From: a virus
Lineage: Duplodnaviria > Heunggongvirae > Uroviricota > Caudoviricetes
IMG/VR virus record: IMGVR_UViG_2617270980_000003
Strand: one strand, 5' to 3'
Length of the DNA stretch: 64,000 nucleotides
In this document: positions 24,042-61,007 of the stretch, in pieces
How positions within the stretch are numbered: position 1 is the first letter of the stretch
Layout: each line of letters starts with the position of its first letter
Program-made: the position numbers and the translations under genes
The notes under the pieces: generated by a model
Databases searched by the model: none
Seen by the model: the letters and a program-made list of their open reading frames with translations, nothing else
What the model was told of the DNA's origin: nothing

Positions 24042-24049
24042 TATTCCTC

Positions 24050-27916: not shown

Positions 27917-27943
27917 TCATGGTGGCGAACTCAACAAAACGTA

Positions 27944-29659: not shown

Positions 29660-29712
29660 CTAACAACCACTACAGGCGCGGCATCGGGTGATGCCGCCCG
29701 GAGATTAAAACG

Positions 29713-33144: not shown

Positions 33145-33156
33145 GAGAGCAAAACA

Positions 33157-33645
33157 ATGATGATGGTTTACGGAATGTTCGTCTTTGAGTTAAAAACCAT
33201 TCCCCACCAACAATTACAGCAGTCAAAGACATGGCGGCATGTAAAGAACGAGCGCATAAACCGATCGGCAAAGTGGCAATACATTGGTGCAGGTGACGAT
33301 CAGATTACCTTATCCGGTGTTTTGTACCCATCAGTGACCGGCGGTAAGGTGAGTCTAACTGTGCTCGATACACAGGCCTACACCGGACGCCCCTGGCCTC
33401 TTATCAGCGGCACCGGGCGGATCTATGGCATGTATTCGATAACGCAGCTTCAGACCACCGATACTGAATTTGACCAGTATGGGGAGCCGAAGAAAATAGA
33501 ATTTACGATCACGTTTCAAAGGCAGGATGAAGACCTGCGCGAAAGCCTCCAGTCTTCATCAGTGAGTGATTTACTCGGCAACCTGCAAAACACAGCCAAC
33601 TCAGCGCTGAATAATATCAGCGCCGCCGCATCCAGTCTGTTTTAA
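33157..33645 (+). CDS. U: Tail protein U (P2 gpU-like)
   Basis: 162 aa, MMMVYGMFVFE..., follows tape measure gene. Confidence 0.75.
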   Translation: MMMVYGMFVFELKTIPHQQLQQSKTWRHVKNERINRSAKWQYIGAGDDQITLSGVLYPSVTGGKVSLTVLDTQAYTGRPWPLISGTGRIYGMYSITQLQTTDTEFDQYGEPKKIEFTITFQRQDEDLRESLQSSSVSDLLGNLQNTANSALNNISAAASSLF

Positions 33646-33744: not shown

Positions 33745-34782
33745 ATGATTGTCCTTAGAATTTTTGTAAGTAAAATAACCACAATTTTTCCTAATTGCGC
33801 GACTAGACTCTATATGAAAAACCTTTCCTCAATTGATTACGCAAAACTTTTCTTTGCGTTTTGTATCATTTTTATACACACAGACATTTTAGGCGGCAAC
33901 AGTAATTATATAGGATATGTTACTTGCCAGGGACTGCTAAGGATTGCAGTGCCATTCTTTTTCATTACTAGTGGATATTTTTATTTTTCTGTAATGCAAA
34001 AAAATAAAATTAAAAAATGGTTTTCTCACAATATAAAAACCTATGCTCTATGGACGCTTCTTTACTTACCAATAATACTAGGATTAGTTGGTTTTATTAG
34101 GGCGGGTAAGCCTTTAGCGACAGACCTTACATATTTATCTCTAAATGCAGTATTTGGATTTTGGCACTTATGGTTTTTCCCTGCCCTGATAGTATCGGCA
34201 TTATTAACATTACTTTTAGCTAAGCTAAAAGATCGCACATTAATAATCATATGCTGCATACTTTATACGTGCGGCACGTTACTTCAATATCGCGCAAATT
34301 ATTCCATTGACATAAATCGTGACATATGGTCTCTCGCTACAGTTTTCTTTTCCAGAAACGGTCTTTTCATGGGTTTTCCATTGTTTATGCTTGGATACCT
34401 TATAAATAAAAATAACATAAGAAATAACAATACATATTTACTCATTGGTTCCATTATTTTGGTCATCATTGAGGCATCCGTAAATTATTCATATGGCACA
34501 TATACCTTTGATATGCTTTTTTCACTTCCATTCGCTGGTGTTTTTGTTTTTTTAAAAGTTCTAGATATCACCCTGAAAACAAAAAACACCTTCACAATTC
34601 GCGAGCACTCAAAAAACATATATCTTATACAAATCTATGCCATTCAGTTTGCAAAACAATTTGCATCTGATTGGTTAGTCATAACAACAATCGCATGCAC
34701 TATTTGCATTAGCTATTCAATAGCTAATATCATTAAAGATAATTTAATTGCAAACTTTAGACTAAAAAGCCTATCAAATTAA
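33745..34782 (+). CDS. Acyltransferase family 3 (OafA/Oac-like) integral membrane protein; probable start ATG 33814
   Basis: Strongly hydrophobic multi-span protein; ...IDYAKLFFAFCIIFIHTD... N-terminal signature; region looks AT-rich by eye; sits between U and G. Confidence 0.7.
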   Translation: MIVLRIFVSKITTIFPNCATRLYMKNLSSIDYAKLFFAFCIIFIHTDILGGNSNYIGYVTCQGLLRIAVPFFFITSGYFYFSVMQKNKIKKWFSHNIKTYALWTLLYLPIILGLVGFIRAGKPLATDLTYLSLNAVFGFWHLWFFPALIVSALLTLLLAKLKDRTLIIICCILYTCGTLLQYRANYSIDINRDIWSLATVFFSRNGLFMGFPLFMLGYLINKNNIRNNNTYLLIGSIILVIIEASVNYSYGTYTFDMLFSLPFAGVFVFLKVLDITLKTKNTFTIREHSKNIYLIQIYAIQFAKQFASDWLVITTIACTICISYSIANIIKDNLIANFRLKSLSN

Positions 34783-35234
34783 TCCTCAGGGATATCAGGC
34801 CAGATAATGTCGGGGGCTTTTGATGTGTCAATACGCATTAATAGCACCCGATATTTCTTCCACTTCGCAAGCTGAATAACTTCATCATCGGTTGAAATAC
34901 CAGCTTCAATCGCATCCTGCCGCCACGCAATTTCTGTACCTGCATTTTCAGCCAAGTCTTTTTTTTGCTGTATAGCTAACGCAATTAACTGATCGGCTGT
35001 AGGCTCTGATACATCAACCCATACAGGCTGACCGGAAGCGTCGCCTCCTCTACCTTTTCCTTCTGGCGGCCTTCCTGTGTATTTCTGATAAATATCAGAT
35101 TCAACTTCAACAATGTCATCAGGCCATGTATTCGTTTTTTCATAGTCTGATTTCATTGACTCAAAAAAGAATGAGTTATTCTTAGCACTGAAATATATAT
35201 TACTAAACATAATTAACACCCCACACCAAAGCAA
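34779..35234 (-). CDS. Tail fibre assembly protein (P2 gpG / Tfa-like)
   Basis: ORF immediately downstream of tail fibre gene; stop shares the TTAA with the convergent acyltransferase stop. Confidence 0.7.
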   Translation of the reverse strand: MLWCGVLIMFSNIYFSAKNNSFFFESMKSDYEKTNTWPDDIVEVESDIYQKYTGRPPEGKGRGGDASGQPVWVDVSEPTADQLIALAIQQKKDLAENAGTEIAWRQDAIEAGISTDDEVIQLAKWKKYRVLLMRIDTSKAPDIIWPDIPED

Positions 35235-36499
35235 AAGAATGGTTTTGACGCAGCGACGCCTGTTCTTTCTAATAAAGAAACCTGCATATCTCGATCGCTT
35301 AATCTTTTAACTCCAGCAATCGCCGACGCTGCTGCATCACCAGCCACATTGCATGGCAAAATACCAAAACAGCGAACAGGCCAACCAATAGGAAAAGGGG
35401 CTGAAGCCCAGCCGCCACCATCAGTATTCCCCCAACACCACTGTAAAATTATTCCATTTGGAAAACGCACCCAACCGGCATCAGCCATTACCTGAGTAAA
35501 GTCTGTATTTTTCACATACCCCTGAATGCCCCAATCATTCTGAAAAATCAATTTTTTCACATCAGCATTCATTGTGAATGCATTAACTCGACGATCGGAG
35601 ATCTCCCCTGATGGAGATAAAGCAAAATCAATATAGTTCGCGCCGTTTCCCATTATGCCGCAAATAATCGACGACATAATTGCTCCACCAAATGAAAAAT
35701 CCAAACCACATGCACTTCCATTTTCACTGCTTTTATTTTTGATATGAATACCTGAAAAACCACTCTCTTTTTCCACGATCATTTCGTGTCCGACTGCTGA
35801 GATAATACCTTCAACAATCACATCACCAGTAACCCTCCCACCAGAAGCAGGTAACGCATCGGCTGCTAATTGAACTGTTTTATCCAAACCAAGGTTTTTG
35901 ATAGCCTCTCCAACCAACCCGGCCTTAATCAATTCTTTAAGAGCATTTTCAATCAACAGGTACTGGCTATGCGGATTAGCGGTGTCAACGTGCTTTTTTA
36001 TCGCGTTGTCTGTATAGGTTTTCACCTCAATTACAGCACTATCAACATACTGCCGGGTTGCCAGCACAACGGACGGATCAACTTTCAGGGTAACGGCATC
36101 AGTGCTCGATACCGTGAGCATCATCCTTATAACCTGCGTACGGCCTGATCCTTCCTCTGTTGTGGCCTTGTACGTCTCCGGGCAGTTAGCCACAGCAATC
36201 AAGATACCATCAGCATCAAAGAGTCCTATTTCACGAATCCACCACCCGCCAACGGATTCAGGAATAATCTGTTCCGCAATAATCTGGCTGTCGTTTTTAT
36301 CGTCCACTGACAGCGAGTTAAGCTGGGCGCGGCGCACCTCGTTAACCAGCGCTGTCTGTGCCTGGCTTGGTGTTGGTGATTTGCCGCCGCCGTCGCCAAC
36401 TGCGAGCGAGGTGATTTCTAACTTCTCACCCAGCGCAGCCATATTTGATAATTTTGCCGCCCCCTGAGCAGTCAGCAGGGCAAAGAATTTAGCCGCCAT
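35213..36499 (-). CDS. H: Tail fibre protein (P2 gpH-like)
   Basis: N-terminus ...AVGDGGG...GGWWIREIGLFDADGILIAVAN... matches conserved P2 H N-terminal domain as recalled. Confidence 0.85.
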   Translation of the reverse strand: MAAKFFALLTAQGAAKLSNMAALGEKLEITSLAVGDGGGKSPTPSQAQTALVNEVRRAQLNSLSVDDKNDSQIIAEQIIPESVGGWWIREIGLFDADGILIAVANCPETYKATTEEGSGRTQVIRMMLTVSSTDAVTLKVDPSVVLATRQYVDSAVIEVKTYTDNAIKKHVDTANPHSQYLLIENALKELIKAGLVGEAIKNLGLDKTVQLAADALPASGGRVTGDVIVEGIISAVGHEMIVEKESGFSGIHIKNKSSENGSACGLDFSFGGAIMSSIICGIMGNGANYIDFALSPSGEISDRRVNAFTMNADVKKLIFQNDWGIQGYVKNTDFTQVMADAGWVRFPNGIILQWCWGNTDGGGWASAPFPIGWPVRCFGILPCNVAGDAAASAIAGVKRLSDRDMQVSLLERTGVAASKPFFCFGVGC

Positions 36500-37103
36500 T
36501 TGTTACCTCTAACGTATCAATAATATGAATTGCGCCCCCGGGAAAATACCCGCCACTGACTTCTACGGCTTCAGGCATATAGGGGTAAATAGTCATCACG
36601 TCACCGCCATAACACCCGGCGTGGGCGTATACCTCTCCCTTCGCCTGCATACTGATTGCAAGGCCGGTCAGGTGGCGTGAGCATGGTTTTGCATCAGCGA
36701 TCAGGCGCTCAAGCTCGAGATAGGTTTCTTCTGTAATCCCTGAGTCAGAAACACCAATTTCAAGTTGAAATGTTCCCCGCTCGCCTCCGTTCTGCCACCA
36801 TTCAACGACCTTTATCAGGAAGCCGAACGGCTCAACGACACGGCGCAGCGCCGCAATAGTTCCCTTTTGCCGGTGTACCAGCCAGGCGGATTTAATCACC
36901 TGTCGCTTTGTCTGTTCTGACCAGCCTTTATCCCAGCGATCAACCGATAACGCCCAGGCCAGATAAGGCAGTAAAGCAACCGGGCATTCATCAGGGTTCC
37001 ACAGCGTTTTCAGGTCTACGGGCAAATCACTCACGCGCCAGGTTGCGGCCTCGGCACTGCGCATAAAATCACTGGCTGAAGGTGGCAACAGACTGTTATT
37101 CAT
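36489..37103 (-). CDS. I: Baseplate/tail protein I (P2 gpI-like)
   Basis: 204 aa between J and H. Confidence 0.8.
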   Translation of the reverse strand: MNNSLLPPSASDFMRSAEAATWRVSDLPVDLKTLWNPDECPVALLPYLAWALSVDRWDKGWSEQTKRQVIKSAWLVHRQKGTIAALRRVVEPFGFLIKVVEWWQNGGERGTFQLEIGVSDSGITEETYLELERLIADAKPCSRHLTGLAISMQAKGEVYAHAGCYGGDVMTIYPYMPEAVEVSGGYFPGGAIHIIDTLEVTNGG

Positions 37104-37989
37104 CGGTTCCGCCTCTCGTGATGGTGACCGAAGCGCACCGCGCCGCCTGTGTATCGCTGATAATCAGCCGTTCAGGTAAATCCAGTTCCACACGCTGCAC
37201 GCCCTGCACGTGTAACGCCGCCAAAATTGCAGACCTGGCAACATCAAGCCCGATCCGCCACTGGCTTTTGAGCCACTTCTGCAACGACGCCTCGGCAGCG
37301 TTCACAATGGGTTCTGACTCTGGGCCTGGGTAGAGATACAGCGTGGCATTGATGTCATAACTGATAATCTCAGCGCTCTGGACTGTCAGCCTGTCACCCA
37401 CAGGGCGGACACTTTCATCTGATAATTTTGCGTTGACCGTTGCGATCAGCTCGTCTGAAGCCGTTCCGTCACCTTCAGCAGAGAGCACCGAAACAACAAC
37501 TTCAGCCGGCGCCGGACTTGATGCCTTAACATCAGCAACTTTCCCTGATGCGCTTTTAGCGAAGTATTCGTAAGCGCCGGTAGGCCCGGCAACACTCAAT
37601 CCTTCGAATGCAGATTGCGCACGTAAGCGCAGCGCGGCGTCACTTTCCATTACCGCATCTGTTGTATCTGTCTCCTCAACAATCGTCAGTCGCTCTGTAT
37701 TGTTATTTGCCGCCAGGTTATCCAGATCTCCGCCGGTGGAATGGCTTAACATGCAAGCTGCAGCACCGTCATTTATGACCTGTCGCAACATCAATTCGCG
37801 ATAAGCAATCACCTGAGCGAGCACCGTCAAAGGCTCCGACTCAAGCTCCAATGCTGCTGCTATGGCCTGTTGTTGTCCCTCCGGATAAGCGGCAATAATC
37901 ATCTCTTTCACATCACTCAGGATGATTTCGAAATCCAGCGTCGCGATGATTTCCGGTGGTGGAAGCTCTGATAAATCAACTGTCGCCAT
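37096..37989 (-). CDS. J: Baseplate assembly protein J (P2 gpJ-like)
   Basis: 297 aa, between W and I. Confidence 0.85.
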   Translation of the reverse strand: MATVDLSELPPPEIIATLDFEIILSDVKEMIIAAYPEGQQQAIAAALELESEPLTVLAQVIAYRELMLRQVINDGAAACMLSHSTGGDLDNLAANNNTERLTIVEETDTTDAVMESDAALRLRAQSAFEGLSVAGPTGAYEYFAKSASGKVADVKASSPAPAEVVVSVLSAEGDGTASDELIATVNAKLSDESVRPVGDRLTVQSAEIISYDINATLYLYPGPESEPIVNAAEASLQKWLKSQWRIGLDVARSAILAALHVQGVQRVELDLPERLIISDTQAARCASVTITRGGTDE

Positions 37990-38344
37990 TGCCTGACTCC
38001 TTCACCTTTACTGCACCGCTTACCGGCTGCATTGTTGTGGTAACCAATCCGCCTAACTCAACCGTCACCGCCCCGGCGTCTGAATACGTAATATCAACCT
38101 GGTTAAGTGCTATCCGCGGTTCCCATTGCGTCAGCGCAATCACCGTGGCGCTCATTAGCTGAAGGCGTGTTGTTTCGTTTTTCGGGGCGTCCAGCAAATC
38201 AGGTAACAAGCTGCCGTACGACCGGCGCATTACGCGTGACCCCAACGGCGTCAGCAGGACATCTTTCACGGACTGCCAAAGGTGATCGCTATCTGAAACC
38301 GTCCCTGTGCCGCCCTGGTTCATTCCCGTATATTTCGCCGTCAT
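37976..38344 (-). CDS. W: Baseplate protein W (GPW/gp25 family)
   Basis: 122 aa; position after V. Confidence 0.8.
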   Translation of the reverse strand: MTAKYTGMNQGGTGTVSDSDHLWQSVKDVLLTPLGSRVMRRSYGSLLPDLLDAPKNETTRLQLMSATVIALTQWEPRIALNQVDITYSDAGAVTVELGGLVTTTMQPVSGAVKVKESGNGDS

Positions 38345-38922
38345 GCCGTCCCCTTAGTCCTGCTATTGCCACTCTCAACACCACCATGATCATGATCGTC
38401 AGCCTGGACGCCGTTTGACTTCAGTGCGCCGCCGCTGTGAGTTACATCGCCGGTCATCTTTCCGCCCTCAGTGAAATCAAAGGTTTTCGCTTTCAGATGT
38501 TTTGTGCACTCCACCTCTGGCGCATCGAGCGTGATTTTTGTTGCTGCCTGGATGGTGGCGGTTTTCATTCCGCCGGCACTCAGTGCGCCCGCCTTCGCGT
38601 CATAGCTAAATTCAGCCCCATCAGGCGCGGTGATCATCATCTGCATCAGGCTACTGGCGGGGGCGTCGTTTTCGTTGCTGTAGAGGCTGCCCAGCACAAC
38701 GGCTGTTTCAGGATTGCCGCCCAGACATCCCAGCAAAACCTGTTCGCCCAGCGACGGCGCACACCAGAATTTGAAAGCACCGGCGCGCGTTGTCGTCCAG
38801 CGAAGCCATGTTGTCTGCAAATCATCGCTCTGCACCCGTACACTTTTACCGTCTTTCGATATGTCAAAAACCACGCCCACACGGAGCACGTTAGACAGGA
38901 GGCGCAACAGTTCGGCACTCAT
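38341..38922 (-). CDS. V: Baseplate spike/assembly protein V
   Basis: 193 aa with Gly-rich C-terminus; P2-order position. Confidence 0.8.
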   Translation of the reverse strand: MSAELLRLLSNVLRVGVVFDISKDGKSVRVQSDDLQTTWLRWTTTRAGAFKFWCAPSLGEQVLLGCLGGNPETAVVLGSLYSNENDAPASSLMQMMITAPDGAEFSYDAKAGALSAGGMKTATIQAATKITLDAPEVECTKHLKAKTFDFTEGGKMTGDVTHSGGALKSNGVQADDHDHGGVESGNSRTKGTA

Positions 38923-39557
38923 GCCCCGGCACCCCCCAGGCTGTTAATCACCGCGCTACGGATCAGCGCTTCATCAGCCTTAGAAATTCCCAACAGGACA
39001 CGCGGCGCATACTTCGCAAATGACCCCGGCCCTACCTGCTCACGCAATCCGTACTGATGAATGCGGGCGATACGGGCCGCCATACCGCTGTAACCCACTT
39101 CAGCCCCCTCACTGGATGCCTTCACCTTCATAAAGCGGGCGGTTCTCAGCTTCACGAACATCGGAGCCTTGACCACTTTTGGGCGCTGGCCCGCGCGGGT
39201 ATTAATTTCCGTATAGCGCTCAATATCGGCACGGTAGAACGTGCGGATCTCATTGCGGTCTTCATCAAATCCGGTAATCGTCCGCCCATATTTACCGCGC
39301 CCGCTGTGCCAGTTTTTCAACCGGCGCAACTGCCCTTCCCAGATAAAGGCGATCCCCTGCTGGGTGCGCAGCGTTTTACGGCGGCGTGACGGGTACTGGC
39401 TTCCGTCCGGGTTACGCTGTGCGCGTATGCGCTGTTGCTGGCTAATTCGTAAAACCTTACCCACGGCGCGCGCCGTTCTGGCCCGCCCACTGGATGACGC
39501 CCCCGCCAGGATGTCTGCGAAATACTGATCCAGCGCGTGAACATCACCGGCATTCAT
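38919..39557 (-). CDS. Tail completion / virion morphogenesis protein (P2 gpS position)
   Basis: 212 aa between R-like and V genes. Confidence 0.65.
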   Translation of the reverse strand: MNAGDVHALDQYFADILAGASSSGRARTARAVGKVLRISQQQRIRAQRNPDGSQYPSRRRKTLRTQQGIAFIWEGQLRRLKNWHSGRGKYGRTITGFDEDRNEIRTFYRADIERYTEINTRAGQRPKVVKAPMFVKLRTARFMKVKASSEGAEVGYSGMAARIARIHQYGLREQVGPGSFAKYAPRVLLGISKADEALIRSAVINSLGGAGA

Positions 39558-40006
39558 GGGTTGTCACTCCCAGGTTCGCTCAACATCGCGCCCCACTCTG
39601 GCATCATGCGCGGGCGGGGTTCCGGCTTATGCTTTCCGGTCAGCTTCCCGGCTTCATCACGCGATACAATCACGCGTTCACTAATAGGCAGTTCAAAAAA
39701 CAGATCGGCGGTATCGTCATTATTGATTGCCGTTGTGAACTTAATTTCTTTGTTCTTCTCCGGGTTCAGCAACAGTTGCGGCTGTTCCTGCCACAGCCAG
39801 GCCATCAGCGGCAACGTGAAATCATCCAGATCACCGGCAAAATTCATCACAAAGAGACACAGCGTATAGGCGTAAACAAAGTCAGCCGTTTCGCCGGTCG
39901 TCTCAACATGCCCGGATTCAATAAAAACGCTGAAGGCTTCAGGGTTGGCACGACACCACGGATTAGCCCTGGTGAGCGCGCTACGTAATGAGTTAATTTT
40001 CAGCAT
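39554..40006 (-). CDS. Tail completion protein (P2 gpR-like)
   Basis: 150 aa, after the lysis cassette as in P2. Confidence 0.7.
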   Translation of the reverse strand: MLKINSLRSALTRANPWCRANPEAFSVFIESGHVETTGETADFVYAYTLCLFVMNFAGDLDDFTLPLMAWLWQEQPQLLLNPEKNKEIKFTTAINNDDTADLFFELPISERVIVSRDEAGKLTGKHKPEPRPRMMPEWGAMLSEPGSDNP

Positions 40007-40283
40007 GTGGTTCCCCTCCCCTCTGGCGTGCCAGGCGCAACAGATTTAGCGCCCGGATATCACTCTTATCCGCATTGCAGGTATCAAGCGCGTCATGCAA
40101 CTGATCCGCCCAAATCGCAATACCGCCCCACGTCACCGGCGTTTTCAGTTCCGGCGTGGGCGTTTCATCGGTCAGGCTTTCCGGTATCGGCTCGTGAATC
40201 AGCCGCGTTTGAACTCTTATTTTTTCTGAGCAACCCATCACTGACAGCAACAGGAGCAAGAGCACTGGCACACGAATCATCAC
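39993..40283 (-). CDS. o-spanin (LysC/Rz1-like outer-membrane lipoprotein), overlapping lysB in another frame
   Basis: Signal peptide with lipobox ...LLLLSVMGC; Pro-rich mature part; starts inside lysB frame and extends past it. Confidence 0.6.
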   Translation of the reverse strand: MMIRVPVLLLLLLSVMGCSEKIRVQTRLIHEPIPESLTDETPTPELKTPVTWGGIAIWADQLHDALDTCNADKSDIRALNLLRLARQRGGEPHAEN

Positions 40284-40539
40284 GCATCCCCTCAGTTATG
40301 TTTTTACGGCGTTCTTCACCCGCTAGGTTGCGTGTTTGCTCCGCTTTTTTGGCCTCAGCCAGCACCGCCCGCGCATCAGCAGACAGACCACGCATTTCAC
40401 CTATCACAGCTTCACTTTCATCAAACATGCGCTGTAACTTCTGTTCGTTGTCATCCGCCACGCCGCTTGTATATCCCCGGTAATACCCGGCCCCGTAAGT
40501 AAGAGCGGTTAGCACCAAACCCCATAAAATTGTTTTCAT
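40165..40539 (-). CDS. i-spanin (LysB/Rz-like)
   Basis: N-terminal TM segment, charged coiled-coil rest; follows endolysin. Confidence 0.6.
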   Translation of the reverse strand: MKTILWGLVLTALTYGAGYYRGYTSGVADDNEQKLQRMFDESEAVIGEMRGLSADARAVLAEAKKAEQTRNLAGEERRKNITEGMRDDSCASALAPVAVSDGLLRKNKSSNAADSRADTGKPDR

Positions 40540-41084
40540 TGCGCCCCCGCATCCTTACGGCACCACGCCTGAAAATCAGTGCGCCGATTGACCAGCCCTT
40601 GCGAGCGCTTACCGGCACTGTTTACAAAGTCGGTTAGACGATCACAGACGCCGCCCCAGTTGTGAGCCTGGGCATTTTTCCAGATGGTTGTGCGCTGTTT
40701 GCGGCCCTGTTTATCGGTAAACCACATCAGGCCCGTACAACCCACATTCAGCCCGCCATCAACCATGCTTTCGAACACCTTTTGCGGCATCGCTTCGCCG
40801 TTGAAGTTCTGGTTTACGCAGCGTTCAGAATGCTGCATATCACTAACCCACCGGCGCGCTACTTCAGCGTTGCTGTACTCGCGTTTTTCCACACCACCGG
40901 TGGAGCCGATCCCCACGGTCAACACTCCGGCGGTACAGTAATAAGGCGTGTTTCGGCAGTCTTCCCAGGAGGCTATTTTTTGCTGTGCTTCCGGCGACGT
41001 TCTCAGCGCATCGGGCGACATTGATAAGCCCAGGGCGACAATTACGGCGATAGAGCAACGCTTAATAACCGTCTTCATCGTCAC
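40536..41084 (-). CDS. Putative endolysin with N-terminal signal/anchor (assignment mainly by position between holin and spanins)
   Basis: 182 aa with hydrophobic N-terminus; P2 gene-K position; catalytic family not identified. Confidence 0.55.
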   Translation of the reverse strand: MTMKTVIKRCSIAVIVALGLSMSPDALRTSPEAQQKIASWEDCRNTPYYCTAGVLTVGIGSTGGVEKREYSNAEVARRWVSDMQHSERCVNQNFNGEAMPQKVFESMVDGGLNVGCTGLMWFTDKQGRKQRTTIWKNAQAHNWGGVCDRLTDFVNSAGKRSQGLVNRRTDFQAWCRKDAGAQ

Positions 41085-41358
41085 CCGCCTGGAATTGCGC
41101 CAGCTTCACCCGCTCAAAATCGGTAAGCCCCCGGCGCTCGGCCTGATCAAGAATTTGCTCAATCAGTGAGTTTCGGCGGGCCTGTGCTTTCTCCACCCGC
41201 GCACGATGTACCCAGGCGCGCCAGCCTGACAGGGCACCCAAAACAACACCGGCAACCCCCAACTTTTCATTCCACGTCATCACACCAACACCAACGCTGA
41301 TGGATGAAGAAATCCAGGTAACCCAGTCCCATAGCCGGTGAAACGAATTTAGCTCCAT
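41062..41358 (-). CDS. Putative holin (P2 gpY position)
   Basis: 98 aa with hydrophobic N-terminal half and charged C-terminus; between X and endolysin. Confidence 0.55.
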   Translation of the reverse strand: MELNSFHRLWDWVTWISSSISVGVGVMTWNEKLGVAGVVLGALSGWRAWVHRARVEKAQARRNSLIEQILDQAERRGLTDFERVKLAQFQAGDDEDGY

Positions 41359-41555
41359 AACTGCACCATCTCTTGTGCGGGCTGGGTATCAATGTCCGGC
41401 ATTTCAACCACCTGCCCTGCGTTTAAAAAAACCTGCCCACTCAGACCCGGATTGGCGGTCAATACTTCTTCAGTAACGCCTTTGGTCTTTCCGTAGTGCC
41501 GGTGGCATAGCTGATCCAGCGTATCGCCCTGTAACGCGGTGACCTTCATCAGCAC
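41349..41555 (-). CDS. X: Tail protein X (P2 gpX-like, LysM-like)
   Basis: 68 aa (P2 X 67 aa) between L and holin. Confidence 0.75.
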   Translation of the reverse strand: MLMKVTALQGDTLDQLCHRHYGKTKGVTEEVLTANPGLSGQVFLNAGQVVEMPDIDTQPAQEMVQLWS

Positions 41556-42046
41556 AACTCCGCATAAACGCGCGGCTTGCGCTGGATGTCTGCAATACCC
41601 CAGCGCGCATCACGCCAGAGATCTTCGCGTTGCAAATCCAGCGCGGCGGCGTCTTTGTCGCCTTTTGGCGTGGTATCAACGTCCCGATAACCTTCAATCA
41701 CCAGGGCACGGGCAATGGAATAAACCGCGCGACGGTAGCGGTACACCTTCACGCTCTCGCCGTTTATCTCCACGGCGGGCACATTCTTCAGCGCCTCATA
41801 GCCCAGCCCCTGCTGATTGATCTGCCACTCTTCAAGCTGCTCAATGACATGTGCCACGGCCTCAGTAGTGACGTGCATCAGTCGCGAAGTGGTGACACCG
41901 CCGGTAATACGCGCGGCAAGGCGCAAATCCTTCAGGTTAATGACAGGCCAGAAACTTCCCGCCGTTACCGTGGAATCACCGTCATCAACATCAGTTACAT
42001 CACTGCCAGGCGGAAACGGCGTTTTTGTGGCAACCAGGCTACTCAT
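41549..42046 (-). CDS. L: Head completion/stabilisation protein (P2 gpL-like)
   Basis: 165 aa following M. Confidence 0.75.
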   Translation of the reverse strand: MSSLVATKTPFPPGSDVTDVDDGDSTVTAGSFWPVINLKDLRLAARITGGVTTSRLMHVTTEAVAHVIEQLEEWQINQQGLGYEALKNVPAVEINGESVKVYRYRRAVYSIARALVIEGYRDVDTTPKGDKDAAALDLQREDLWRDARWGIADIQRKPRVYAELC

Positions 42047-42143
42047 GAGCGCTCCTTAAAAAGTCAGGAGGTGGACACGCGGTGAAAAGACCAGTTACGG
42101 GCAGATCTCCGCGCGTGCCTCCTGTCGGTCGGGGCCGAAGTCG

Positions 42144-42968
42144 TTAAGATTCTTTTTTATCTTTCGCCGTTTTACGCGGTGCGCGTTTTTTTGCTGCCGG
42201 TTTCTCAGCTTTATCCGCGCTCGGCTTACGTTTGGTTTTCTTCTCTGCGACAACCGGCACAGGCACCGGTTGTGCTGTCGCTTCCGGTTGCGGGGCCGCC
42301 AGCTTCTTCAGCTCGCGTGAAATAGACTGCATTTCACGTTTCACGCCCGCTGCGGGGTTCAGTTCCGTCGCACGGCGAAACAGTTTTAGCGCTTCGCCTT
42401 TTGTCTCATTGTCAGCCGTTCCACGGCGCGAGAAGGCGCGGGCCTTGCAGAGCTTGGATTGCACTTCATCCGGCATATCAGCACCGGCGACAATCTCCGC
42501 CAGTTCATCCAGCACGGTGATATAAGCCGACATATCCGCCTCAACGTCAGTCATCGCCACGTTCAGCGCCTGGTTACTGATTTCTTCAGTCAGCATCACC
42601 GGCGCAGTACGTTTGAAGTCGTCACGCATAGACAGGCCATGCTTCACCACATAGCGCCCAATCTTGAGCGCTTGCGGGTAGTCCTGGCAGTCAATCGCCC
42701 ACAGCATCATCGTGGTGATCACTTCATCCTGTCGCCCGCTGTCGCCCTCCAGAGTCCCATCAATCCAGCCCTGGTAACCCGGCAACATGTCACGCTTCAT
42801 CACTGCTTTTGTTTCAGTAGACTGCACCGCTTTAAGAGAGGCCTGATCGAGGCGTAGACGATGCAAAATTTGCTCATGCGCGGTACGCACAACGCTATGT
42901 TGCGCGGCACTGTCTCCGCGTCGATCAGCCATCACTTTCTGAAAGTGTTTTTGCGCTGGGGTTAACAT
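42144..42968 (-). CDS. M: Terminase endonuclease (small) subunit (P2 gpM-like)
   Basis: 274 aa with Lys-rich C-terminal tail; follows capsid gene. Confidence 0.8.
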   Translation of the reverse strand: MLTPAQKHFQKVMADRRGDSAAQHSVVRTAHEQILHRLRLDQASLKAVQSTETKAVMKRDMLPGYQGWIDGTLEGDSGRQDEVITTMMLWAIDCQDYPQALKIGRYVVKHGLSMRDDFKRTAPVMLTEEISNQALNVAMTDVEADMSAYITVLDELAEIVAGADMPDEVQSKLCKARAFSRRGTADNETKGEALKLFRRATELNPAAGVKREMQSISRELKKLAAPQPEATAQPVPVPVVAEKKTKRKPSADKAEKPAAKKRAPRKTAKDKKES

Positions 42969-43011
42969 TTTTGTCTCCAGGTGGCGGGCGCATATGCGCC
43001 CGCAATTGCAG

Positions 43012-44097
43012 TTACGCGCCCGCGTTCTCGTCAGGCTCTACGGATAACGATGCCGGGGCGGCCTCCGCGAAGGTGATCCCGTCAATGAATGCGCATTTGC
43101 CGTAGTCTTCTACAACGAAGTCATCGTTTGAGGACTGGTAGTTAGCCACGCGGTTATATTGCGGTTCCTCTTTGATGGTTCGACGCAGTGCGCCCAACTG
43201 GTAATACACAGAGAGGTTTTTCAGCGACGTGATCAGCACACAGTCATCAGGCATGTACGGTGCGAAGACCACCGGCAGACCGCCAACTTTTTCACTGGAC
43301 ACAATCAACTGTGCCGCGATCAATTCGCTGTTCGGGTTGGTCTGGCTCAGGGCGTTCAGTTTCGGGAAATAGCTACTGGTCAACAGATCAGAAGACAGGA
43401 TCACAACCAGATCAGGCGCTTTGCGGTGCCACGAATCCAACAGCGTGTTTTTGGCGTCAAAAACAGCCGCGTCCAGGTTGCCGTAAGTACCTTTGGCGAC
43501 GATTTTGTTGTCTTCATCGCGCGCAGTCAGCGTGACTTTGCTGATGATGCGGTGCGGGGCGTCATTGCGGATTTTCTGAAGCCAGCCAACGCCACAATCC
43601 TGCAACAGCGGATTCGTGGCACGGTCAGACACTTCAGCGTATGACGTACCATTAAAACCAATCATGATACGGTCCAGTGCAATCTGGCGGGCGTTTGCCG
43701 CGCTGATCAGTGACTGGAAATTAGGTTGCATAGACCAGGCATCCAGCTGTGAATAGCTGGAGCTAGAGTCGTAGTTGGTTTTACGGCAGCGGTACGTGCT
43801 CGGCTCTTTAGAGTGATTGTCTACCGGGTTGCGGCGGGGGGGGCCGTCGCTGCTGTTGTTGGTACTGGCGATCGGGCCTTTGCTACCAATCAGGATTTTT
43901 TGGCCTTCCTGGGCTTTTACCGGGAATACGTTAATTTTCTTCAGAAAATCATCGCTTTCCATTGAAGCGGCTTCCATACGCTGCTGCACAGCCGGTTCAA
44001 CGCTGAAGGACTTGGCGACATCATCAGAGCGCACGCCATTTAAGTTGGCTTGGCGATCGATATAGCCGTTAAAAAGTACGCGGGTACTGTTTTCCAT
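43012..44097 (-). CDS. N: Major capsid protein (P2 gpN-like)
   Basis: 361 aa (P2 N 357 aa) between O and M. Confidence 0.85.
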   Translation of the reverse strand: MENSTRVLFNGYIDRQANLNGVRSDDVAKSFSVEPAVQQRMEAASMESDDFLKKINVFPVKAQEGQKILIGSKGPIASTNNSSDGPPRRNPVDNHSKEPSTYRCRKTNYDSSSSYSQLDAWSMQPNFQSLISAANARQIALDRIMIGFNGTSYAEVSDRATNPLLQDCGVGWLQKIRNDAPHRIISKVTLTARDEDNKIVAKGTYGNLDAAVFDAKNTLLDSWHRKAPDLVVILSSDLLTSSYFPKLNALSQTNPNSELIAAQLIVSSEKVGGLPVVFAPYMPDDCVLITSLKNLSVYYQLGALRRTIKEEPQYNRVANYQSSNDDFVVEDYGKCAFIDGITFAEAAPASLSVEPDENAGA

Positions 44098-44120
44098 GTG
44101 TTTTATTCTCGCTTGCGTGG

Positions 44121-44960
44121 TTAGTAATCGGCTTGTTCGACGCCGGTGTTACCGCCCTGTGCGGGCTGGCGGCTGAAAGTGCTGGCGTCCTGCTTTGCCA
44201 GTGTGTTTTTCAGGTCGGTCAGTTCGCTGGTCAACTTCTGAATTTCCTTTGCGTCGTCAGCGCGCTGGCTTCTCAGTTCCACCACCTGATCGATAAGGCC
44301 CGCCTGAGACGTGGCGACACCTTCAACCACTTCGCGCACCTGGCTGAATTGCTCACTGTCGGTTTTATGGTTTTTGGTCAGAATTTCCTTCATGCGGCTA
44401 AACCACTTGCTGCCTTCATCACTTCGCTGCTCAGCCAGTTCGATCACTTCCGCTTCAATGGCGTCAGAGAACATCGCGCTTTCGCCCTGCTGTTTATTGA
44501 ATGCCTGCACCTGCTGGCGCTGCTGGGCCGCAAACTTCAGGCGATCAGTACCCAGACTTGCCGGGGTATCAGTCATCGCCATGCCGACAATGTAGGCCTT
44601 ACCGTTCAGTGCAAATTGCGGGTGCAATTCAATACTGGAATAGACTTTCTTACCGGCATCTGTCAGCGCTTTCATTTGCGCTGACGGTTCAATTTCCGCA
44701 TATAACGCAGTGCGCCCTGCTAGCGGACCTTCAGTAATGTCCTCAGCGCTAAGCGCCGTAACATCCCCCATCGCACCAAAATCACTGCCTGGATAAGGCG
44801 AGAGATAATGTTCAACATTCACGCGAGCGCCGTAAACGTCCTGGCTATAGCTCGCGGCAGCATCACGGAGGTGATCTGGTCGAATTTCGCGACCGTCAAC
44901 GGTGGCACCGGAGACGGCAACGCGGAATTTCTTCCGGGTAGGTTTGCTGGTTTCACTCAT
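44121..44960 (-). CDS. O: Capsid scaffolding protein (P2 gpO-like)
   Basis: 279 aa; ...VYSSIELHPQFALNGKAYIVGMAMTDTPASLGTDRL... parallels P2 O as recalled. Confidence 0.85.
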   Translation of the reverse strand: MSETSKPTRKKFRVAVSGATVDGREIRPDHLRDAAASYSQDVYGARVNVEHYLSPYPGSDFGAMGDVTALSAEDITEGPLAGRTALYAEIEPSAQMKALTDAGKKVYSSIELHPQFALNGKAYIVGMAMTDTPASLGTDRLKFAAQQRQQVQAFNKQQGESAMFSDAIEAEVIELAEQRSDEGSKWFSRMKEILTKNHKTDSEQFSQVREVVEGVATSQAGLIDQVVELRSQRADDAKEIQKLTSELTDLKNTLAKQDASTFSRQPAQGGNTGVEQADY

Positions 44961-45033
44961 GTTCTTTCCTGCCGGTTGGTTTCTGTTTTTCCATGATGTC
45001 AGTTGCTAAGTCATTGTCTCAACGCGTTTTAGT

Positions 45034-45051
45034 TGTCAGAGACGGCCCACA
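45034..45051. promoter_or_regulatory. Ogr-type late-promoter activator site (TGT-N12-ACA) between divergent O and P
   Basis: TGTcagagacggcccACA, roughly equidistant (~75-82 bp) from O ATG 44960 and P ATG 45117. Confidence 0.6.
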
Positions 45052-45116
45052 ACCCAAACAGCGGGAACGGCCCACGCGCGCGGGTTAATCTCTCCATCGA
45101 AACGAGAGGACACCGC

Positions 45117-46841
45117 ATGATCCAGGACGCATTTGTAAGACAGAGAGCAAAGCAGCTTTACTGGCAGGGCTACCCGCCAGCAGAGATCGCACGCCTGATG
45201 GGTATCAGTCAGAACACGGTTTATTCGTGGAAAAAGCGCGACGAATGGGACGAAACGCCCGCGATTCAGCGCGTCACACAATCTATTGATGCCCGGTTAT
45301 GCCAAATCGCGATGAAACCAACAAAGACCGGCGGCGATCTGAAGGAAATCGACGCGCTCACGCGCCAGGTGAAGAAGCTGGCAGAAGGCCAACCGGCGCA
45401 ACCCTTCAAGAAAGCGCGCGCGGGCAAGAAGAAAAACCACTTCACCGAAGCGCAGATCGCCGCGCTGCGGGAAAAAATTCAGGACTCTCTGGCCTGGCAT
45501 CAGCAGGGATGGTTTGAACAGCGCCAGCAACGAAACCGCATGATCCTGAAAAGTCGCCAGATTGGCGCAACCTGGTATTTTGCCCGCGAAGCGCTATTAC
45601 AGGCGCTGCGGGATGACGTTAAGCACGGATACCAACGCAACCAGATTTTTCTGTCAGCGTCACGCCGCCAGGCGCACCAGTTCCGGGGATTCATTCAGAA
45701 GATTGCCGAAGAGGTAGACGTAGAACTAAAGGGCGGTGACAAAATTTTGCTGTCTAACGGGGCTGAATTGCATTTTCTCGGCACGTCTGCCGCTACTGCG
45801 CAGAGCTACACCGGCAACCTGTTTTTTGATGAATTTTTCTGGGTAGGCAACTTTGCCAACCTTCGCAAAGTGGCTGGCGCTATGGCAACCCTGAAAGGGC
45901 TTACGCGCACTTACTTTTCAACGCCATCGAGCGAAAGCCACGAAGCCTACCCCTTCTGGACGGGCAAGCGCTGGAATGAGAAGCGGGCCAAGTCCAGCAG
46001 GGTAGACTTCGACACAAGCTGGAAAACGCTAAACAGCGGCCTATTGTGCCCGGACAAAACCTGGCGGCAGATTGTCACCCTAAAGGACGTGATCGACCAC
46101 GGCTGGGAGTTCACCGACCTGGAAGAAATCCAGGACGAAAACACCCCGGACGAATACACCAACCTGTACATGTGTGAGTTCGTCAGAGAAGGCGAGGCTG
46201 TTTTCTCACTCAATCAGCTACTGACGTGTGGCGCGGACGGCTACGACGACTGGCAGGACTGGAAACCCTACGCACCCCGCCCGCTGGGTGATCGTGAAGT
46301 CTGGATAGGCTACGACGCCAACGGCGGCAGCGGCAACGGTGACAGCGGCGCTGTTTCCGTGGTTGCCCCTCCCCTTGTCAGTGGCGGCAAGTTCCGCACG
46401 ATAGAGACGCGCCAGCTACGCGGGATGGAGTTTGAAGAACAGGCCAAAGTGATCGAAGACCTGACGATGAAATATAACGTTCGACACATCGCAATTGACG
46501 GCACCGGCATCGGTGAAGCGGTCTGGCAACTGGTCAAAAAGTTCTTCCCGGCTTCGGTCTGTTTCATAATGTCGCTGTCATCAAAGCGCACCCTGGTACT
46601 GAAAATGCAACAGGTGATCCGCGCGGGGCGCTGGGAGTATGACCGCAGTGAACAGGCGCTAGTGTCAGCATTCAACGCTGTCAGAAAGATCACCACCCCC
46701 GGCGGACAAGTCACTTATGACACCGACCGCGCGCGCGGAGTCAGTCACGGCGACTTAGCCTGGGCCAATATGCTGGCAGTCATCAACGAGCCGCTTGGAC
46801 GCGAGAACGGCGGCGGCGGTAGTTTCGTTATGGAGTTTTAA
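45117..46841 (+). CDS. P: Terminase ATPase (large) subunit (P2 gpP-like); track start 45033 is TTG upstream of the promoter element
   Basis: ATG 45117 preceded by GAGAGGA; 574 aa; divergent from O as in P2. Confidence 0.9.
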   Translation: MIQDAFVRQRAKQLYWQGYPPAEIARLMGISQNTVYSWKKRDEWDETPAIQRVTQSIDARLCQIAMKPTKTGGDLKEIDALTRQVKKLAEGQPAQPFKKARAGKKKNHFTEAQIAALREKIQDSLAWHQQGWFEQRQQRNRMILKSRQIGATWYFAREALLQALRDDVKHGYQRNQIFLSASRRQAHQFRGFIQKIAEEVDVELKGGDKILLSNGAELHFLGTSAATAQSYTGNLFFDEFFWVGNFANLRKVAGAMATLKGLTRTYFSTPSSESHEAYPFWTGKRWNEKRAKSSRVDFDTSWKTLNSGLLCPDKTWRQIVTLKDVIDHGWEFTDLEEIQDENTPDEYTNLYMCEFVREGEAVFSLNQLLTCGADGYDDWQDWKPYAPRPLGDREVWIGYDANGGSGNGDSGAVSVVAPPLVSGGKFRTIETRQLRGMEFEEQAKVIEDLTMKYNVRHIAIDGTGIGEAVWQLVKKFFPASVCFIMSLSSKRTLVLKMQQVIRAGRWEYDRSEQALVSAFNAVRKITTPGGQVTYDTDRARGVSHGDLAWANMLAVINEPLGRENGGGGSFVMEF

Positions 46842-47902
46842 TGAACACAACAACACATGAAAGCGGTATGACCATGCTTACTGACGGCGCGCAACAGGCT
46901 GATATTGGCGAAGCACTAAAGCGCGATCCCGCTCTGAGCGCCTTCACCTTTGATGGGCCATACCAGGTCGCGGACGCTTACGACCTACTCGACAATATGT
47001 ATTGCGCCGACAACGGCAGATATTACGAAACGCCGGTGGACTGGTACGGGCTTGCGCGTTCATTCGGCAAAGCATCCTGGCACCAGTCAGCGCTGTACTT
47101 CAAGCGCAACGCGCTGGCGGGATGCTTTATTCCACACCCGCTACTGTCTCGCCAGACGTTCTCCGCCCTGGCGCTTGACTGGTTTGTGTTTGGCAACTTC
47201 TATCTTGAAGAACGAAAGAACCGGCTAGGCGGGCGGCTACCGCTTCGCCATTCCCCTGCGAAGTACACCCGGCGCGGCACCGACCTGGACACGTACTGGT
47301 TTATCAGGCAGTGGAAAGACGAATGCGCCTTTGAAACCGGCACAGTTTGCCACGTGCTGAACCCCGATATTCACCAGGAAATCTACGGGATGCCGGAATA
47401 TATGGGCACCCTGCTGTCAGCCAGCCTGTCACACTCGGCGGACATGTTTCGCAAAATGTACTATGAGAACGGATCTCATGCTGGCTGCATTCTTTACATC
47501 GGCACATCACAGGTAGATGACGCTGGTGTAAAACAGATACAGCAAACACTGGCAGGAGCCAGGAACAAAGGCGCATTTAAGAACGTAGTGATCCACGCAC
47601 CAGGCGGCGGCAAAGATGGGGTACAACTGATGCCCTTCAGCCAGATATCTGCAAAGGATGAGTTTTTAAATATTAAATCAGCTACGCGTGATGACATCCT
47701 TGCCGCTCACCGCGTACCACCGCAACTGATGGGGGCCATGCCGGACGGCAACGGCTCATTCGGTGATATGGAGAAAGCCGCGCGCGTGTTTGCCATCAAC
47801 GAACTGATGCCAGCAATGGAAGCACTGAAGCACGTCAACGACTGGCTTGGCGAAGAAGTGATCCGCTTTAAACCTTACGCCCTGCTTGAATCCACCAAAT
47901 AA
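46841..47902 (+). CDS. Q: Portal protein (P2 gpQ-like)
   Basis: 353 aa, start overlaps P stop. Confidence 0.9.
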   Translation: MNTTTHESGMTMLTDGAQQADIGEALKRDPALSAFTFDGPYQVADAYDLLDNMYCADNGRYYETPVDWYGLARSFGKASWHQSALYFKRNALAGCFIPHPLLSRQTFSALALDWFVFGNFYLEERKNRLGGRLPLRHSPAKYTRRGTDLDTYWFIRQWKDECAFETGTVCHVLNPDIHQEIYGMPEYMGTLLSASLSHSADMFRKMYYENGSHAGCILYIGTSQVDDAGVKQIQQTLAGARNKGAFKNVVIHAPGGGKDGVQLMPFSQISAKDEFLNIKSATRDDILAAHRVPPQLMGAMPDGNGSFGDMEKAARVFAINELMPAMEALKHVNDWLGEEVIRFKPYALLESTK

Positions 47903-48130: not shown

Positions 48131-48241
48131 CGTGCACTTGCAGATCCACCGCCAGCCCCCGCAGATCCTGCCTCGATAATCCCAAAAAGGGGCTGATTTT
48201 ATTGTGCATTTTTGCGCACAATCGTGCATCACTTTACTCTA

Positions 48242-48271
48242 TTGAAAAGTAACCTCATGCCTAGTTATGAT
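48242..48271 (+). promoter_or_regulatory. Putative sigma70 promoter for the KAP NTPase gene
   Basis: TTGAAA-18 nt-TATGAT ~40 bp upstream of ATG 48308; preceded by inverted repeat TTGTGC...GCACAA at 48203-48222. Confidence 0.4.
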
Positions 48272-48307: not shown

Positions 48308-49657
48308 ATGCGATTGACCGCTCCTGTTAAAGCGTTCTCAGATGGTTTTAGTACAGCAGATGACATATTTGGACGTAAAAAACTTCATGACATCATCATG
48401 CGGGTAGCAACAAATGCCCCAGATAAAAGTCTTGTACTTGCGCTCAATGATGAATGGGGTAACGGAAAAACCTCATTTGTAAAAATGATGTCATCAGAAA
48501 TAAATAAAAACCATGCTGACAACTTTGACGTTATTTACTTTGACGCTTTTGAAAATGACTATCAATCAGACCCATTTGTAGCCTTAACATCAAAAATTTA
48601 TTCACTCATAAAAAAAGAAGATGGAAAGCTTAAAAACCTCGGGAAAGAGTTATTATCCATTGGTAAAAAACTAGGCGCGTCATTCGCACTTAATGGTGCA
48701 AAATTTGCCGTAAGCACTTTCACAAGTGGATTAGTCTCAGGTAACGCACTGGAGAAAGCAAGTGATGCCATCAGTGACTCTCTCACATCACCTATTGAAG
48801 AGTACATTGAAGAAAAAATAAAAACGAGCGAGAGTGAGTTAGCAACAATTGAGCAATTTAGAGCATTGCTGACCAAGATTCACACTGAGTGTGGGAAAAA
48901 AATAATATTTATAATTGATGAGCTAGACAGGTCGCGACCTGATTTTTCCCTTGACTTGCTAGAGAAAATAAAACATATATTTTCAGTGGAAGGTTTTGTT
49001 TTCTTACTAGTAGTTAACCGTGAGCAGTTTGAAAAAAGTATAGAGTGTAGATATGGGAGCATAAATACAAGATTATATTTAAATAAATTTATTCATTATT
49101 GGTTTACTCTTCCTAAAAAAAGTATGCTCTCAGTAGGCTGCCGAGCAGGCTATGAACGTTCAACGTTAACACAATATCTCCTGTCGTTAGATCAAGGGAA
49201 TGACATACTGATTCGGAATGGTTCTCTCGTAAAAACCCTCGCGTATCTTCTAGAAATGAATAACTGTTCACTGCGAGAGGCTGAGCGTTGCTATTCAACA
49301 TTCGCAATAATGAACGACCCCAGCGAAGTAAATTCCTACCGACATGAAATATTTCATGTTGCCATCGCACTAGTTGCTTTCTTGAAAATATTCAACCAAT
49401 CCTTACTCATGGAAATATTAAACAAAAAACTGACAGAAGATGAGATATTTAAACGATTATCAATTCCTGTAAACCTTGTCGATGTTTCTGAGATTTATTA
49501 TATTGCAATATTGTTAAAATACCACTTAGCCACCGATGAAGAACTACGTTCCTCTGATATGCTCACTGAGTACGCATTCATGGCTGTAATACCTGGACAA
49601 CGAGTCAAATGGTTTGAAATGATGTATGAGAAGATCGAAGGCTTTGATATTAACTGA
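48308..49657 (+). CDS. KAP-family P-loop NTPase (cargo gene in P2 old/tin hotspot)
   Basis: 449 aa; Walker A NDEWGNGKTSF, Walker B IIFIIDELDRSRPD, hydrophobic stretch between them; AT-rich by eye. Confidence 0.75.
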   Translation: MRLTAPVKAFSDGFSTADDIFGRKKLHDIIMRVATNAPDKSLVLALNDEWGNGKTSFVKMMSSEINKNHADNFDVIYFDAFENDYQSDPFVALTSKIYSLIKKEDGKLKNLGKELLSIGKKLGASFALNGAKFAVSTFTSGLVSGNALEKASDAISDSLTSPIEEYIEEKIKTSESELATIEQFRALLTKIHTECGKKIIFIIDELDRSRPDFSLDLLEKIKHIFSVEGFVFLLVVNREQFEKSIECRYGSINTRLYLNKFIHYWFTLPKKSMLSVGCRAGYERSTLTQYLLSLDQGNDILIRNGSLVKTLAYLLEMNNCSLREAERCYSTFAIMNDPSEVNSYRHEIFHVAIALVAFLKIFNQSLLMEILNKKLTEDEIFKRLSIPVNLVDVSEIYYIAILLKYHLATDEELRSSDMLTEYAFMAVIPGQRVKWFEMMYEKIEGFDIN

Positions 49658-49718
49658 TAAGCCATATTATCTTTTATCTCTATTTTGAAGCAATAAAACT
49701 AGAAGTAAACTCTAAAAA

Positions 49719-49740
49719 GCCGCCAATCCCGGCGGTCTTT
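49719..49740 (+). terminator. Rho-independent terminator after the KAP NTPase gene
   Basis: CCGCC-aatccc-GGCGG hairpin followed by TCTTT. Confidence 0.45.
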
Positions 49741-49936
49741 GAAGGGCATTACAATTTCGTGGCGCTCAGTTATACATGGATTCTTAGCAAGGACCAAGCC
49801 GCGACACACTACATTGTAGCTCCCCGCTATGTGATTTGAAGTTGCTGGCAATCAAAAAATGCTCCCTTTAGTACCACTAATTTTGTAGAGTATGGTTAAC
49901 TTTGAAAAGTTGTAATACGTCAACTAAGGAACAGCG

Positions 49937-51088
49937 ATGTCATCAGAAAAAACAATAGAACGTTTCGTTGCAGCAGATGTTAGCGGTGCAATCTGGTTAC
50001 GATTAAAACGATTAATGAGTGCGCAGCTCTGTAAGAAAATAATAGAAAATAATCATCCGTCATTGCAAGAGGATGTATTGATTAAAAAATCCATTGGAAT
50101 GTCCTCCGCAATACGAAGTGCAATCGGATATTGGGAGACTGAAAATGGCGGACTCAATTCAAAAATTTTATCCAGATATTATGCATTATTACAGATAAGC
50201 TTAGCTGAACAAATATCATCAGGGGATCCTAACGACGATTTAAAAAATGTTCAAAAGCATACGGTTTCAGGTCATGGGCTATTCACACAATCTGTTGAAA
50301 ATGAAACATTCCCAGACAATATAAAAATAGGCTGTCTTAAAAGTGGACATTTTTATTCATATGCAAAGCATATAGGAATTGATATCAAACAGTATGCAAC
50401 AGAAAGACGTCCAAAAAAAGATGAAGATTTAGACCCATCACGCACCTATTCTTTAACTGATTTATTAAAACGAATTCCAGAATTAAGACCGCTTTTACAA
50501 GAAACTTTCGGTGAAGATCCACTTTCATTCCAAATTGGACAAGCAAGTAGAAACATGCTCTTAAGATCAAGGAATCAGTCACTCGGTGGCCTATCGCGTC
50601 CTAAACCAGAGTTCTCAGGTTTTACATATGCCGCAATTTATCCCAAAGGTAGCGATGTAACAGCAGAAGAGCTTAATTCTTACAACATTGGAATAAAAAA
50701 CATTGAAATTGAGTCAGAAGAAAACCTCACAAAATATGACCAACCATATTTTGTAGGAGAAGTCCATCACCCTGAAGATGAGCTATGGTGGGATTATGTC
50801 ACGACACACAAATCTGGTTATTGTGGAACGAGTGTAATTGTCCCATTTTGGGGAACTCAAGATCCCTTTGTATTACACTTAGTCGTATTATATACATTAA
50901 GCATTATAGTCAGGTATCTCCCTGACACTTGGTATGAGATTGAGCATGGCAAACTTGATTATATTAATTCCCTTTTGGAAAATTATTTAGCTATTTTTGA
51001 TAGTGTACTGCCTAAACTTGCGGTTGAAAGATTAACGAAAGTTCATTTGGTAGTAACAGCACCCGATAGCATGAATTCCCCTATCTAA
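49937..51088 (+). CDS. Hypothetical protein (second cargo gene in hotspot), no recognisable domain
   Basis: 383-aa ORF, AT-rich, own upstream region; C-terminal hydrophobic segment PFVLHLVVLYTLSIIVRYL. Confidence 0.6.
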   Translation: MSSEKTIERFVAADVSGAIWLRLKRLMSAQLCKKIIENNHPSLQEDVLIKKSIGMSSAIRSAIGYWETENGGLNSKILSRYYALLQISLAEQISSGDPNDDLKNVQKHTVSGHGLFTQSVENETFPDNIKIGCLKSGHFYSYAKHIGIDIKQYATERRPKKDEDLDPSRTYSLTDLLKRIPELRPLLQETFGEDPLSFQIGQASRNMLLRSRNQSLGGLSRPKPEFSGFTYAAIYPKGSDVTAEELNSYNIGIKNIEIESEENLTKYDQPYFVGEVHHPEDELWWDYVTTHKSGYCGTSVIVPFWGTQDPFVLHLVVLYTLSIIVRYLPDTWYEIEHGKLDYINSLLENYLAIFDSVLPKLAVERLTKVHLVVTAPDSMNSPI

Positions 51089-58222: not shown

Positions 58223-58526
58223 TTTATAGCGGCTTTCAGTGGCTTTATGTGGTGCTCAAACCCGCATTACACCGCTGAAAGCCCGTATATCAAAGGGCTA
58301 CCAACGCCCCCGATGGAGCCTTCATTTTCACTTTCTTAAATCTAACGATAGACGGCTAACATTTAAGTATTGTGAAATATTATCAAATGTAATCATCATT
58401 GATTTACAAAAGATACATTTTGCCCCGAAAGGATTCCTGTCAGAAACATCAAAAGATGATGTTCTATACTGAGAACCATGGCAACACGGGCATCTAAAGT
58501 GAATATGGTTTGTAATATTTTCTACC

Positions 58527-58742
58527 TCAAAGTGCCACAACATGAACAGCCGCGGGGCCTTTAGGTCCGTTCTCAATACCAAATTCGACTTCCTGATTCT
58601 CAGTTAACGTTTTGAAATCGTTGCTCTGAATAGCTGAGAAATGGACAAACACATCTTTGCTACCATCTTTCGGCGTGATGAAACCAAAACCTTTTTCAGG
58701 GTTAAACCATTTCACTAAACCAGTCATTTTGTTAGACATCAT
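58527..58742 (-). CDS. cspI: Cold-shock protein, CspA family (CspI-like prophage moron)
   Basis: [38 protein letters not shown]... with RNP1/RNP2 motifs; sits downstream of Rz as cspI does in Qin. Confidence 0.75.
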
Positions 58743-59102: not shown

Positions 59103-60130
<1,028 letters not shown>

Positions 60131-61003: not shown

Positions 61004-61007
61004 TGGA

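Follow-up and report, generated by a model that had tools for sequence, protein, structure and literature searches.

The window analysed here, a stretch of 64 kb of viral DNA, holds a P2-like prophage of the family Peduoviridae. This prophage spans ~26.3-58.3 kb, from its ogr gene to an integrase gene at 57209-58222, and the named phage closest to it is Enterobacter phage phiT5282H, with ~75% DNA identity over the O/P region. Lambdoid late genes, on the minus strand, lie on both sides of it: GnsAB, DUF1441 and terminase gpA on the left flank (21942-26300), and DUF2514 (read as Rz-like), lysozyme, DUF1327 and a P21-type holin on the right flank (58300-61307). The P2-like element looks like a prophage nested in another prophage, between the lysis module and the terminase genes. 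Attachment-site repeats were sought at the prophage ends, and none longer than 12 bp was found.

Four late transcription units form two divergent pairs, D/FI and O/P. Tail gene D (26669-27802, minus strand; Pfam Phage_GPD, PHROG tail protein) diverges from the tail operon FI-FII-E/E'-T-U (27956-33645, plus strand), whose orientation relative to D-ogr is the reverse of that in P2. Likewise, a contiguous late operon from O to G, comprising head, lysis, baseplate and fibre genes (34779-44960, minus strand), diverges from the operon of P (large terminase) and Q (portal) at 45117-47902 on the plus strand, where Q is assigned from its position and the phiT5282H map. Gene assignment makes O the scaffold and FI the tail sheath, so the names D, FI, O and P proposed in an earlier sequence-only reading of this DNA are correct. 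The predicted promoters sit upstream of the structural and lysis operons P-Q, O-to-G, FI-to-U and D-ogr. S and V overlap, leaving no gap for a separate V promoter, and D has no other upstream promoter region because FI starts 153 bp off on the opposite strand.

Directly downstream of D lies an ogr homologue of 82 aa (26382-26630, minus strand; Pfam Ogr_Delta PF04606, E = 4.4e-19) with its CX2CX22CX4C motif intact; D-side late transcription would thus raise Ogr levels too. A candidate sigma-70 promoter for ogr, CTGACT-17-TAGAAT (26666-26694, minus strand), called by consensus match only, overlaps the D stop codon, and the P2 record annotates an ogr promoter at the corresponding position. A GC-rich hairpin, AAAAGCCCCGCAATGCGGGGCTTTT (26355-26382), directly follows ogr, at the position where P2 has an annotated terminator.

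At the junction of the inverted module, an Acyl_transf_3 family gene (33745-34782, plus strand) directly follows U and runs convergently to a tail-fibre assembly gene; it may be O-antigen-modifying cargo. After Q, where a cos site is expected, comes an AT-rich cargo region (GC ~0.40; 48308-51088, plus strand) with genes for a KAP-family P-loop NTPase of 449 aa and for a YaaC-like protein of 383 aa. It occupies the position of old and tin in P2, and may be a defence locus.

A 30-bp element, CGTTTTAGTTGTCAGAGA-N5-CACAACC, is present in each divergent intergenic region, at 27854-27883 between D and FI and at 45025-45054 between O and P. These two exact matches in the 64 kb window compare with 0.00 expected from 100 shuffles, and a repeat search groups both copies as one family (43 nt, 77% identity). 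The sequence-only reading had reported a repeat at these two gene pairs, and both copies do exist, but it gave the spacer as N8, a pattern with zero matches even when 3 mismatches are allowed, and placed the copies at 27851-27883 and 45024-45056. It was right that each copy contains one TGT-N12-ACA (27863-27880 for D/FI and 45034-45051 for O/P) and that neither intergenic region has a second. The bare motif is not enriched in the window, with 13 occurrences observed and 15.2 expected. The informative unit is instead the extended dyad GTTGT-N12-ACAAC, which is perfect at just two places in the window, both of them within the elements: 27861-27882 (centre 27871.5) and 45032-45053 (centre 45042.5). 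We annotate the elements, without strand, as putative Ogr-type activator sites, that at 27854-27883 common to the D and FI late promoters and that at 45025-45054 common to the O and P late promoters. The distances from dyad centre to start codon are 82 bp (O), 74 bp (P), 69 bp (D) and 84 bp (FI), in keeping with the earlier description of the elements as roughly equidistant from the two genes that they separate.

Among species-representative genomes, exact copies of the site pattern were found solely in Kluyvera sp. STS39-E (NZ_JBFQGA010000011.1), whose prophage is 92% identical to that of the window and has one copy in each of the two loci that the scan returned. None of the contigs returned by the pattern scan has more than two copies.

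We find it scarcely credible that the repeats are relics of tail-gene recombination, or chance repeats, with no regulatory role. The thought arises from their layout: they are direct repeats at the two ends of the FI-to-O block, and the lineage has FI-U inverted; direct repeats, however, do not produce inversions. The chance expectation is 0, the O/P copy is at the same place as the annotated activator sites of P2 and 186, and conserved half-sites around a drifting centre are what a protein-binding dyad should show.

To look for further sites, we scanned with a 30-bp position matrix; the 37 distinct sites behind it include those of the window itself. The two window copies score 37.7 and 32.0 bits, the next best window position scores 6.5 bits, and no third site was found in the 64 kb window. 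The same scan of phiT5282H likewise gives two sites and no third. Rebuilding the matrix with the window's own sites left out does not change the result, because relatives carry identical sites. The matrix is clade-specific, failing to recognise the P2 and 186 sites, and it contains the window's own sites, so it could overlook an additional site of very divergent sequence.

One other dyad, ATTGTGCA...GCGCACAAT (48201-48222), precedes the gene of the KAP NTPase. We do not count it among the Ogr sites, since its spacing does not fit (it lies ~66 bp from the start predicted by a nearby TTGAAA-18-TATGAT promoter), its matrix score is low and it falls outside the top matches. The dyad stands next to this sigma-70-like promoter, within 48201-48271, and may be an operator of the cargo gene.

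Within the O/P intergenic region, a degenerate dyad, GTTGC-N12-TCAAC (45002-45023), raises the idea that the other direction has a second activator site of its own. It matches 8/10 dyad positions and is present in the O/P intergenic region of the closest relatives, but it lacks the TGT/ACA cores, is missing from the top matrix matches, and belongs to a class of dyad matches (two or fewer mismatches) that occurs at chance frequency in the window (24 observed, 28 expected); on these grounds we rejected it as a second site. Relative to the predicted starts, its centre would be at about -26 for O or about -85 for P. Moreover, the half that is conserved, TCAAC, complements the -35 hexamer of the O promoter, and its other half is unconserved in phiT5282H-type relatives. 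The D/FI region offers no comparable degenerate candidate, and we regard a second, degenerate site as very unlikely.

A published summary has Ogr binding to inverted repeats near -55 and working via the polymerase alpha subunit (PMC3152322); a contact site on alpha is required for P2 late transcription (Wood et al. 1997, cited in PMC3152322). We anchored every promoter on its dyad centre and express -10 hexamer positions as offsets from that centre. The predicted -10 of the P promoter is TAATCT (45086-45091, plus strand; offset 43-48), with a start at ~45098 that would put the site at -55.5. For O it is CATCAT (44998 to 44993, minus strand; offset 44-49), with a start at ~44986 and the site at -56.5. 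For FI it is AATCAT (27915-27920, plus strand; offset 43-48; start ~27927, site at -55.5), and for D it is AATTAT (27828 to 27823, minus strand; offset 43-48; start ~27816, site at -55.5). These starts are predicted from -10-like hexamers in which 3-4/6 consensus positions match. A generic promoter scan independently places a predicted O promoter (44993-45022, minus strand), consisting of TTGAGA, an 18-bp spacer, TG and CATCAT, exactly at the expected position. With its good -35 and extended -10, this promoter could be active to some degree without the activator. The D side lacks a -35 match.

The same measurement applied to known promoters gives offset 43-48 for P2 pO (GAAACT), P2 pP (TAGCCT), 186 pV (GAAACT) and 186 p12 (TAGCCT), and offset 44-49 for P2 pF (GAAAAT); the P2 offsets reproduce the annotated starts in the P2 record. 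In P2 the mapped start of P is 3016 on the minus strand and that of O is 3127 on the plus strand; both are 55.5 bp away from the dyad centre at 3071.5. The predicted separation of starts in the window is 112 bp for O/P and 111 bp for D/FI, against 111 bp in P2. Such an arrangement is uncommon by chance: -10-like hexamers at qualifying offsets on both sides (A at position 2, T at position 6 and at least 3/6 consensus matches) occur at just 0.74% of window positions.

To assess conservation, we compared 39 O/P and 21 D/FI intergenic regions, all distinct and all taken from viral contigs; FI identity among them falls as low as ~57%. Every one of these regions has a single best dyad at the same position. 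The conserved columns are the half-sites, the -10 blocks and the ribosome-binding sites, and the middle of the dyad varies. In all relatives' regions except one, a -10-like hexamer stands at offset 43-45 on both sides. The sequence TAATCT is found there in 38 of the 39 distinct O/P relatives, the D side has a -10-like hexamer at offset 43-48 in every D/FI relative examined, and the TTGAGA and CATCAT blocks of the O promoter are both kept in most relatives. Salmonella phage SEN5 (Senquatrovirus) and Klebsiella phage 3LV2017 (Reginaelenavirus) have the same D/FI arrangement and geometry. The paired sites covary per genome: in the window's clade the two have ACAAC at the end, and in phiT5282H the two have AGACC there, which is the expectation if one protein reads both sites.

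These data also bear on whether each site activates one direction only, namely P and (as at P2 pF) FI, with O and D transcribed from sigma-70 promoters or by some other route. P2 pO and 186 pV are both annotated as activator-dependent, with a site in common. The D side lacks a -35 yet keeps a conserved -10-like hexamer at offset 43-48 in all D/FI relatives examined, and the chance of mirror symmetry at both loci is ~0.0074 squared. In favour of one-way activation, the O side has a respectable sigma-70 promoter, TTGAGA-18-TG-CATCAT, and the activator-to-start geometry of both the D and O sides is a prediction; but the O operon holds lysis genes, whose unregulated expression should harm. On balance we consider activation in a single direction improbable.

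Two kinds of sequence block near the dyads are recorded here as separate observations. T or A tracts flank both half-sites (27854-27860, 27883-27889, 45025-45031 and 45054-45060) and are conserved. They give all four promoters an A-rich run at about -42 to -39. Such tracts are not seen in P2. These runs sit where a proximal UP-element subsite would, and we speculate that they may be docking sites for the alpha subunit. The spacer of the D promoter contains a GC-rich palindrome, CCACGCG-GGCG-CGCGTGG (27829-27846; CCACGCGGGCGCGCGTGG), with a 9-bp stem, and the P promoter has a similar CCCACGCGCGC block at 45073-45086 (P copy CCCACGCGCGCGGG). The alternating-CG blocks lie in the spacers (about -27 to -12) of these two promoters and are conserved in relatives. 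P2 pP has CGCGGGGCGCG where the D and P promoters carry the CG block, and 186 p12 is without one.

We conclude that the two elements, unique in the window, accompanied by an activator gene and set in a conserved geometry that matches the mapped P2 promoters, are probably the only Ogr-family activator sites of this prophage, each serving a pair of back-to-back late promoters and together driving the four late units. In the proposed mechanism, Ogr would bind each dyad on the symmetry axis of its promoter pair, with transcription starting ~111-112 bp apart and the centre at about -55.5 from each start. One bound activator could then help RNA polymerase on either side, making both directions activator-dependent, and two sites would drive P-Q, O-to-G, FI-to-U and D-ogr. 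That one site serves both directions is well supported, by inference from sequence and comparison. The sequence-only reading had proposed Ogr-type activator sites, one per divergent region, that might serve both directions, and the promoter geometry found on both sides fits that proposal.

The D/FI pair invites an explanation of how it came about. P2 and 186 have the order FI-FII-E-T-U-D-ogr on one strand. The inverted FI-U order is found in the window and also in phiT5282H (Novemvirus), SEN5 (Senquatrovirus), 3LV2017 (Reginaelenavirus) and KSP20. The divergent pair exists because the FI-U operon was inverted in the lineage, by which we mean this prophage, Novemvirus, Senquatrovirus and Reginaelenavirus, all of the Peduoviridae. 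We think it somewhat better than even that this inversion set the palindromic pF site back-to-back with D and that a D promoter arose at the mirror distance, leaving the late regulon, including the activator gene, on two bidirectional Ogr sites. In such a course of events the inversion would have placed the pF site upstream of D as well and, since that site is palindromic, it would have become usable by D, with a -10 element at the mirror distance. P2 has three sites in its late regulon, compared with the two of this reading. If it is true, the D/FI pair would be a natural case in which genome rearrangement recruited a symmetric activator site to a new promoter.

The bidirectional D/FI pair has no annotation in the deposited records and no mention in the literature searched, and the SEN4/SEN5 paper makes no mention of ogr, promoters or rearrangement. 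The pair is modestly new, departing from P2 through gene order and not through mechanism. Phages with the inverted tail operon are widespread, and they probably control D-ogr and FI-U from one site. For annotation of P2-like prophages, a useful rule is to look for the dyad and, 43-49 bp to each side of its centre, for -10 hexamers. The D/FI pair is also well suited to asking whether one Ogr-bound dyad activates two polymerases.

Sharing of an activator site between divergent late promoters is already on record for related phages. The P2 record (NC_001895) has a single 'activator binding site; pO, pP promoters' at 3057-3087, and the 186 record (NC_001317) has one B-protein site at 3798-3817 for 'activation of pV and p12 promoters'. 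In the P2-like phage Smp131, PP' and PO' are given identical coordinates in opposite directions (PMC3931495). The sequence-only reading had set the single site per region against separate sites in P2, a contrast that fails, as both records annotate one site per divergent P/O-type pair. The common summary of 'four late promoters, each with TGT-N12-ACA' needs the same correction, since it obscures the site that pP and pO have in common in P2 and 186.

The O/P site of the window, common to both promoters, is the canonical P2 design. Like the window, P2 has P-Q and O onward as flanking genes, one dyad between them and an Ogr_Delta activator. The P2 dyad is imperfect (GTTGT-N12-CCATC), whereas that of the window is perfect (GTTGT-N12-ACAAC) with conserved T/A tracts flanking it. 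The O promoter of the window differs from P2 in its -35-like TTGAGA, and the O operon continues through V-G with no separate pV, unlike P2. The 186 p12/pV pair resembles the window in having one activator site for a divergent pair and -10 offsets of 43-48 on both sides; it differs in its activator, B instead of Ogr, and in its imperfect dyad (GTTGT...GTCCA).

At D/FI, the homologue of the site upstream of FI is P2 pF, where GTTGT-N12-(A/C)CAACC is followed by a -10 at 43-49 and then by FI. The P2 pF site is one-directional, D being the last gene of the FI-FII-E-T-U-D operon, whereas in the window D-ogr lies on the other side of the site. A functional analogy can be drawn with CRP-type class I activation, in which a two-fold symmetric site between divergent promoters can offer RNA polymerase an activating surface in both directions; the analogy is of function only, the protein family being unrelated to Ogr. 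The understanding of the mechanism is unchanged. Flanked by D and FI, the D/FI site is not a locus homologous to P2 pP/pO but a second instance of the same known design.
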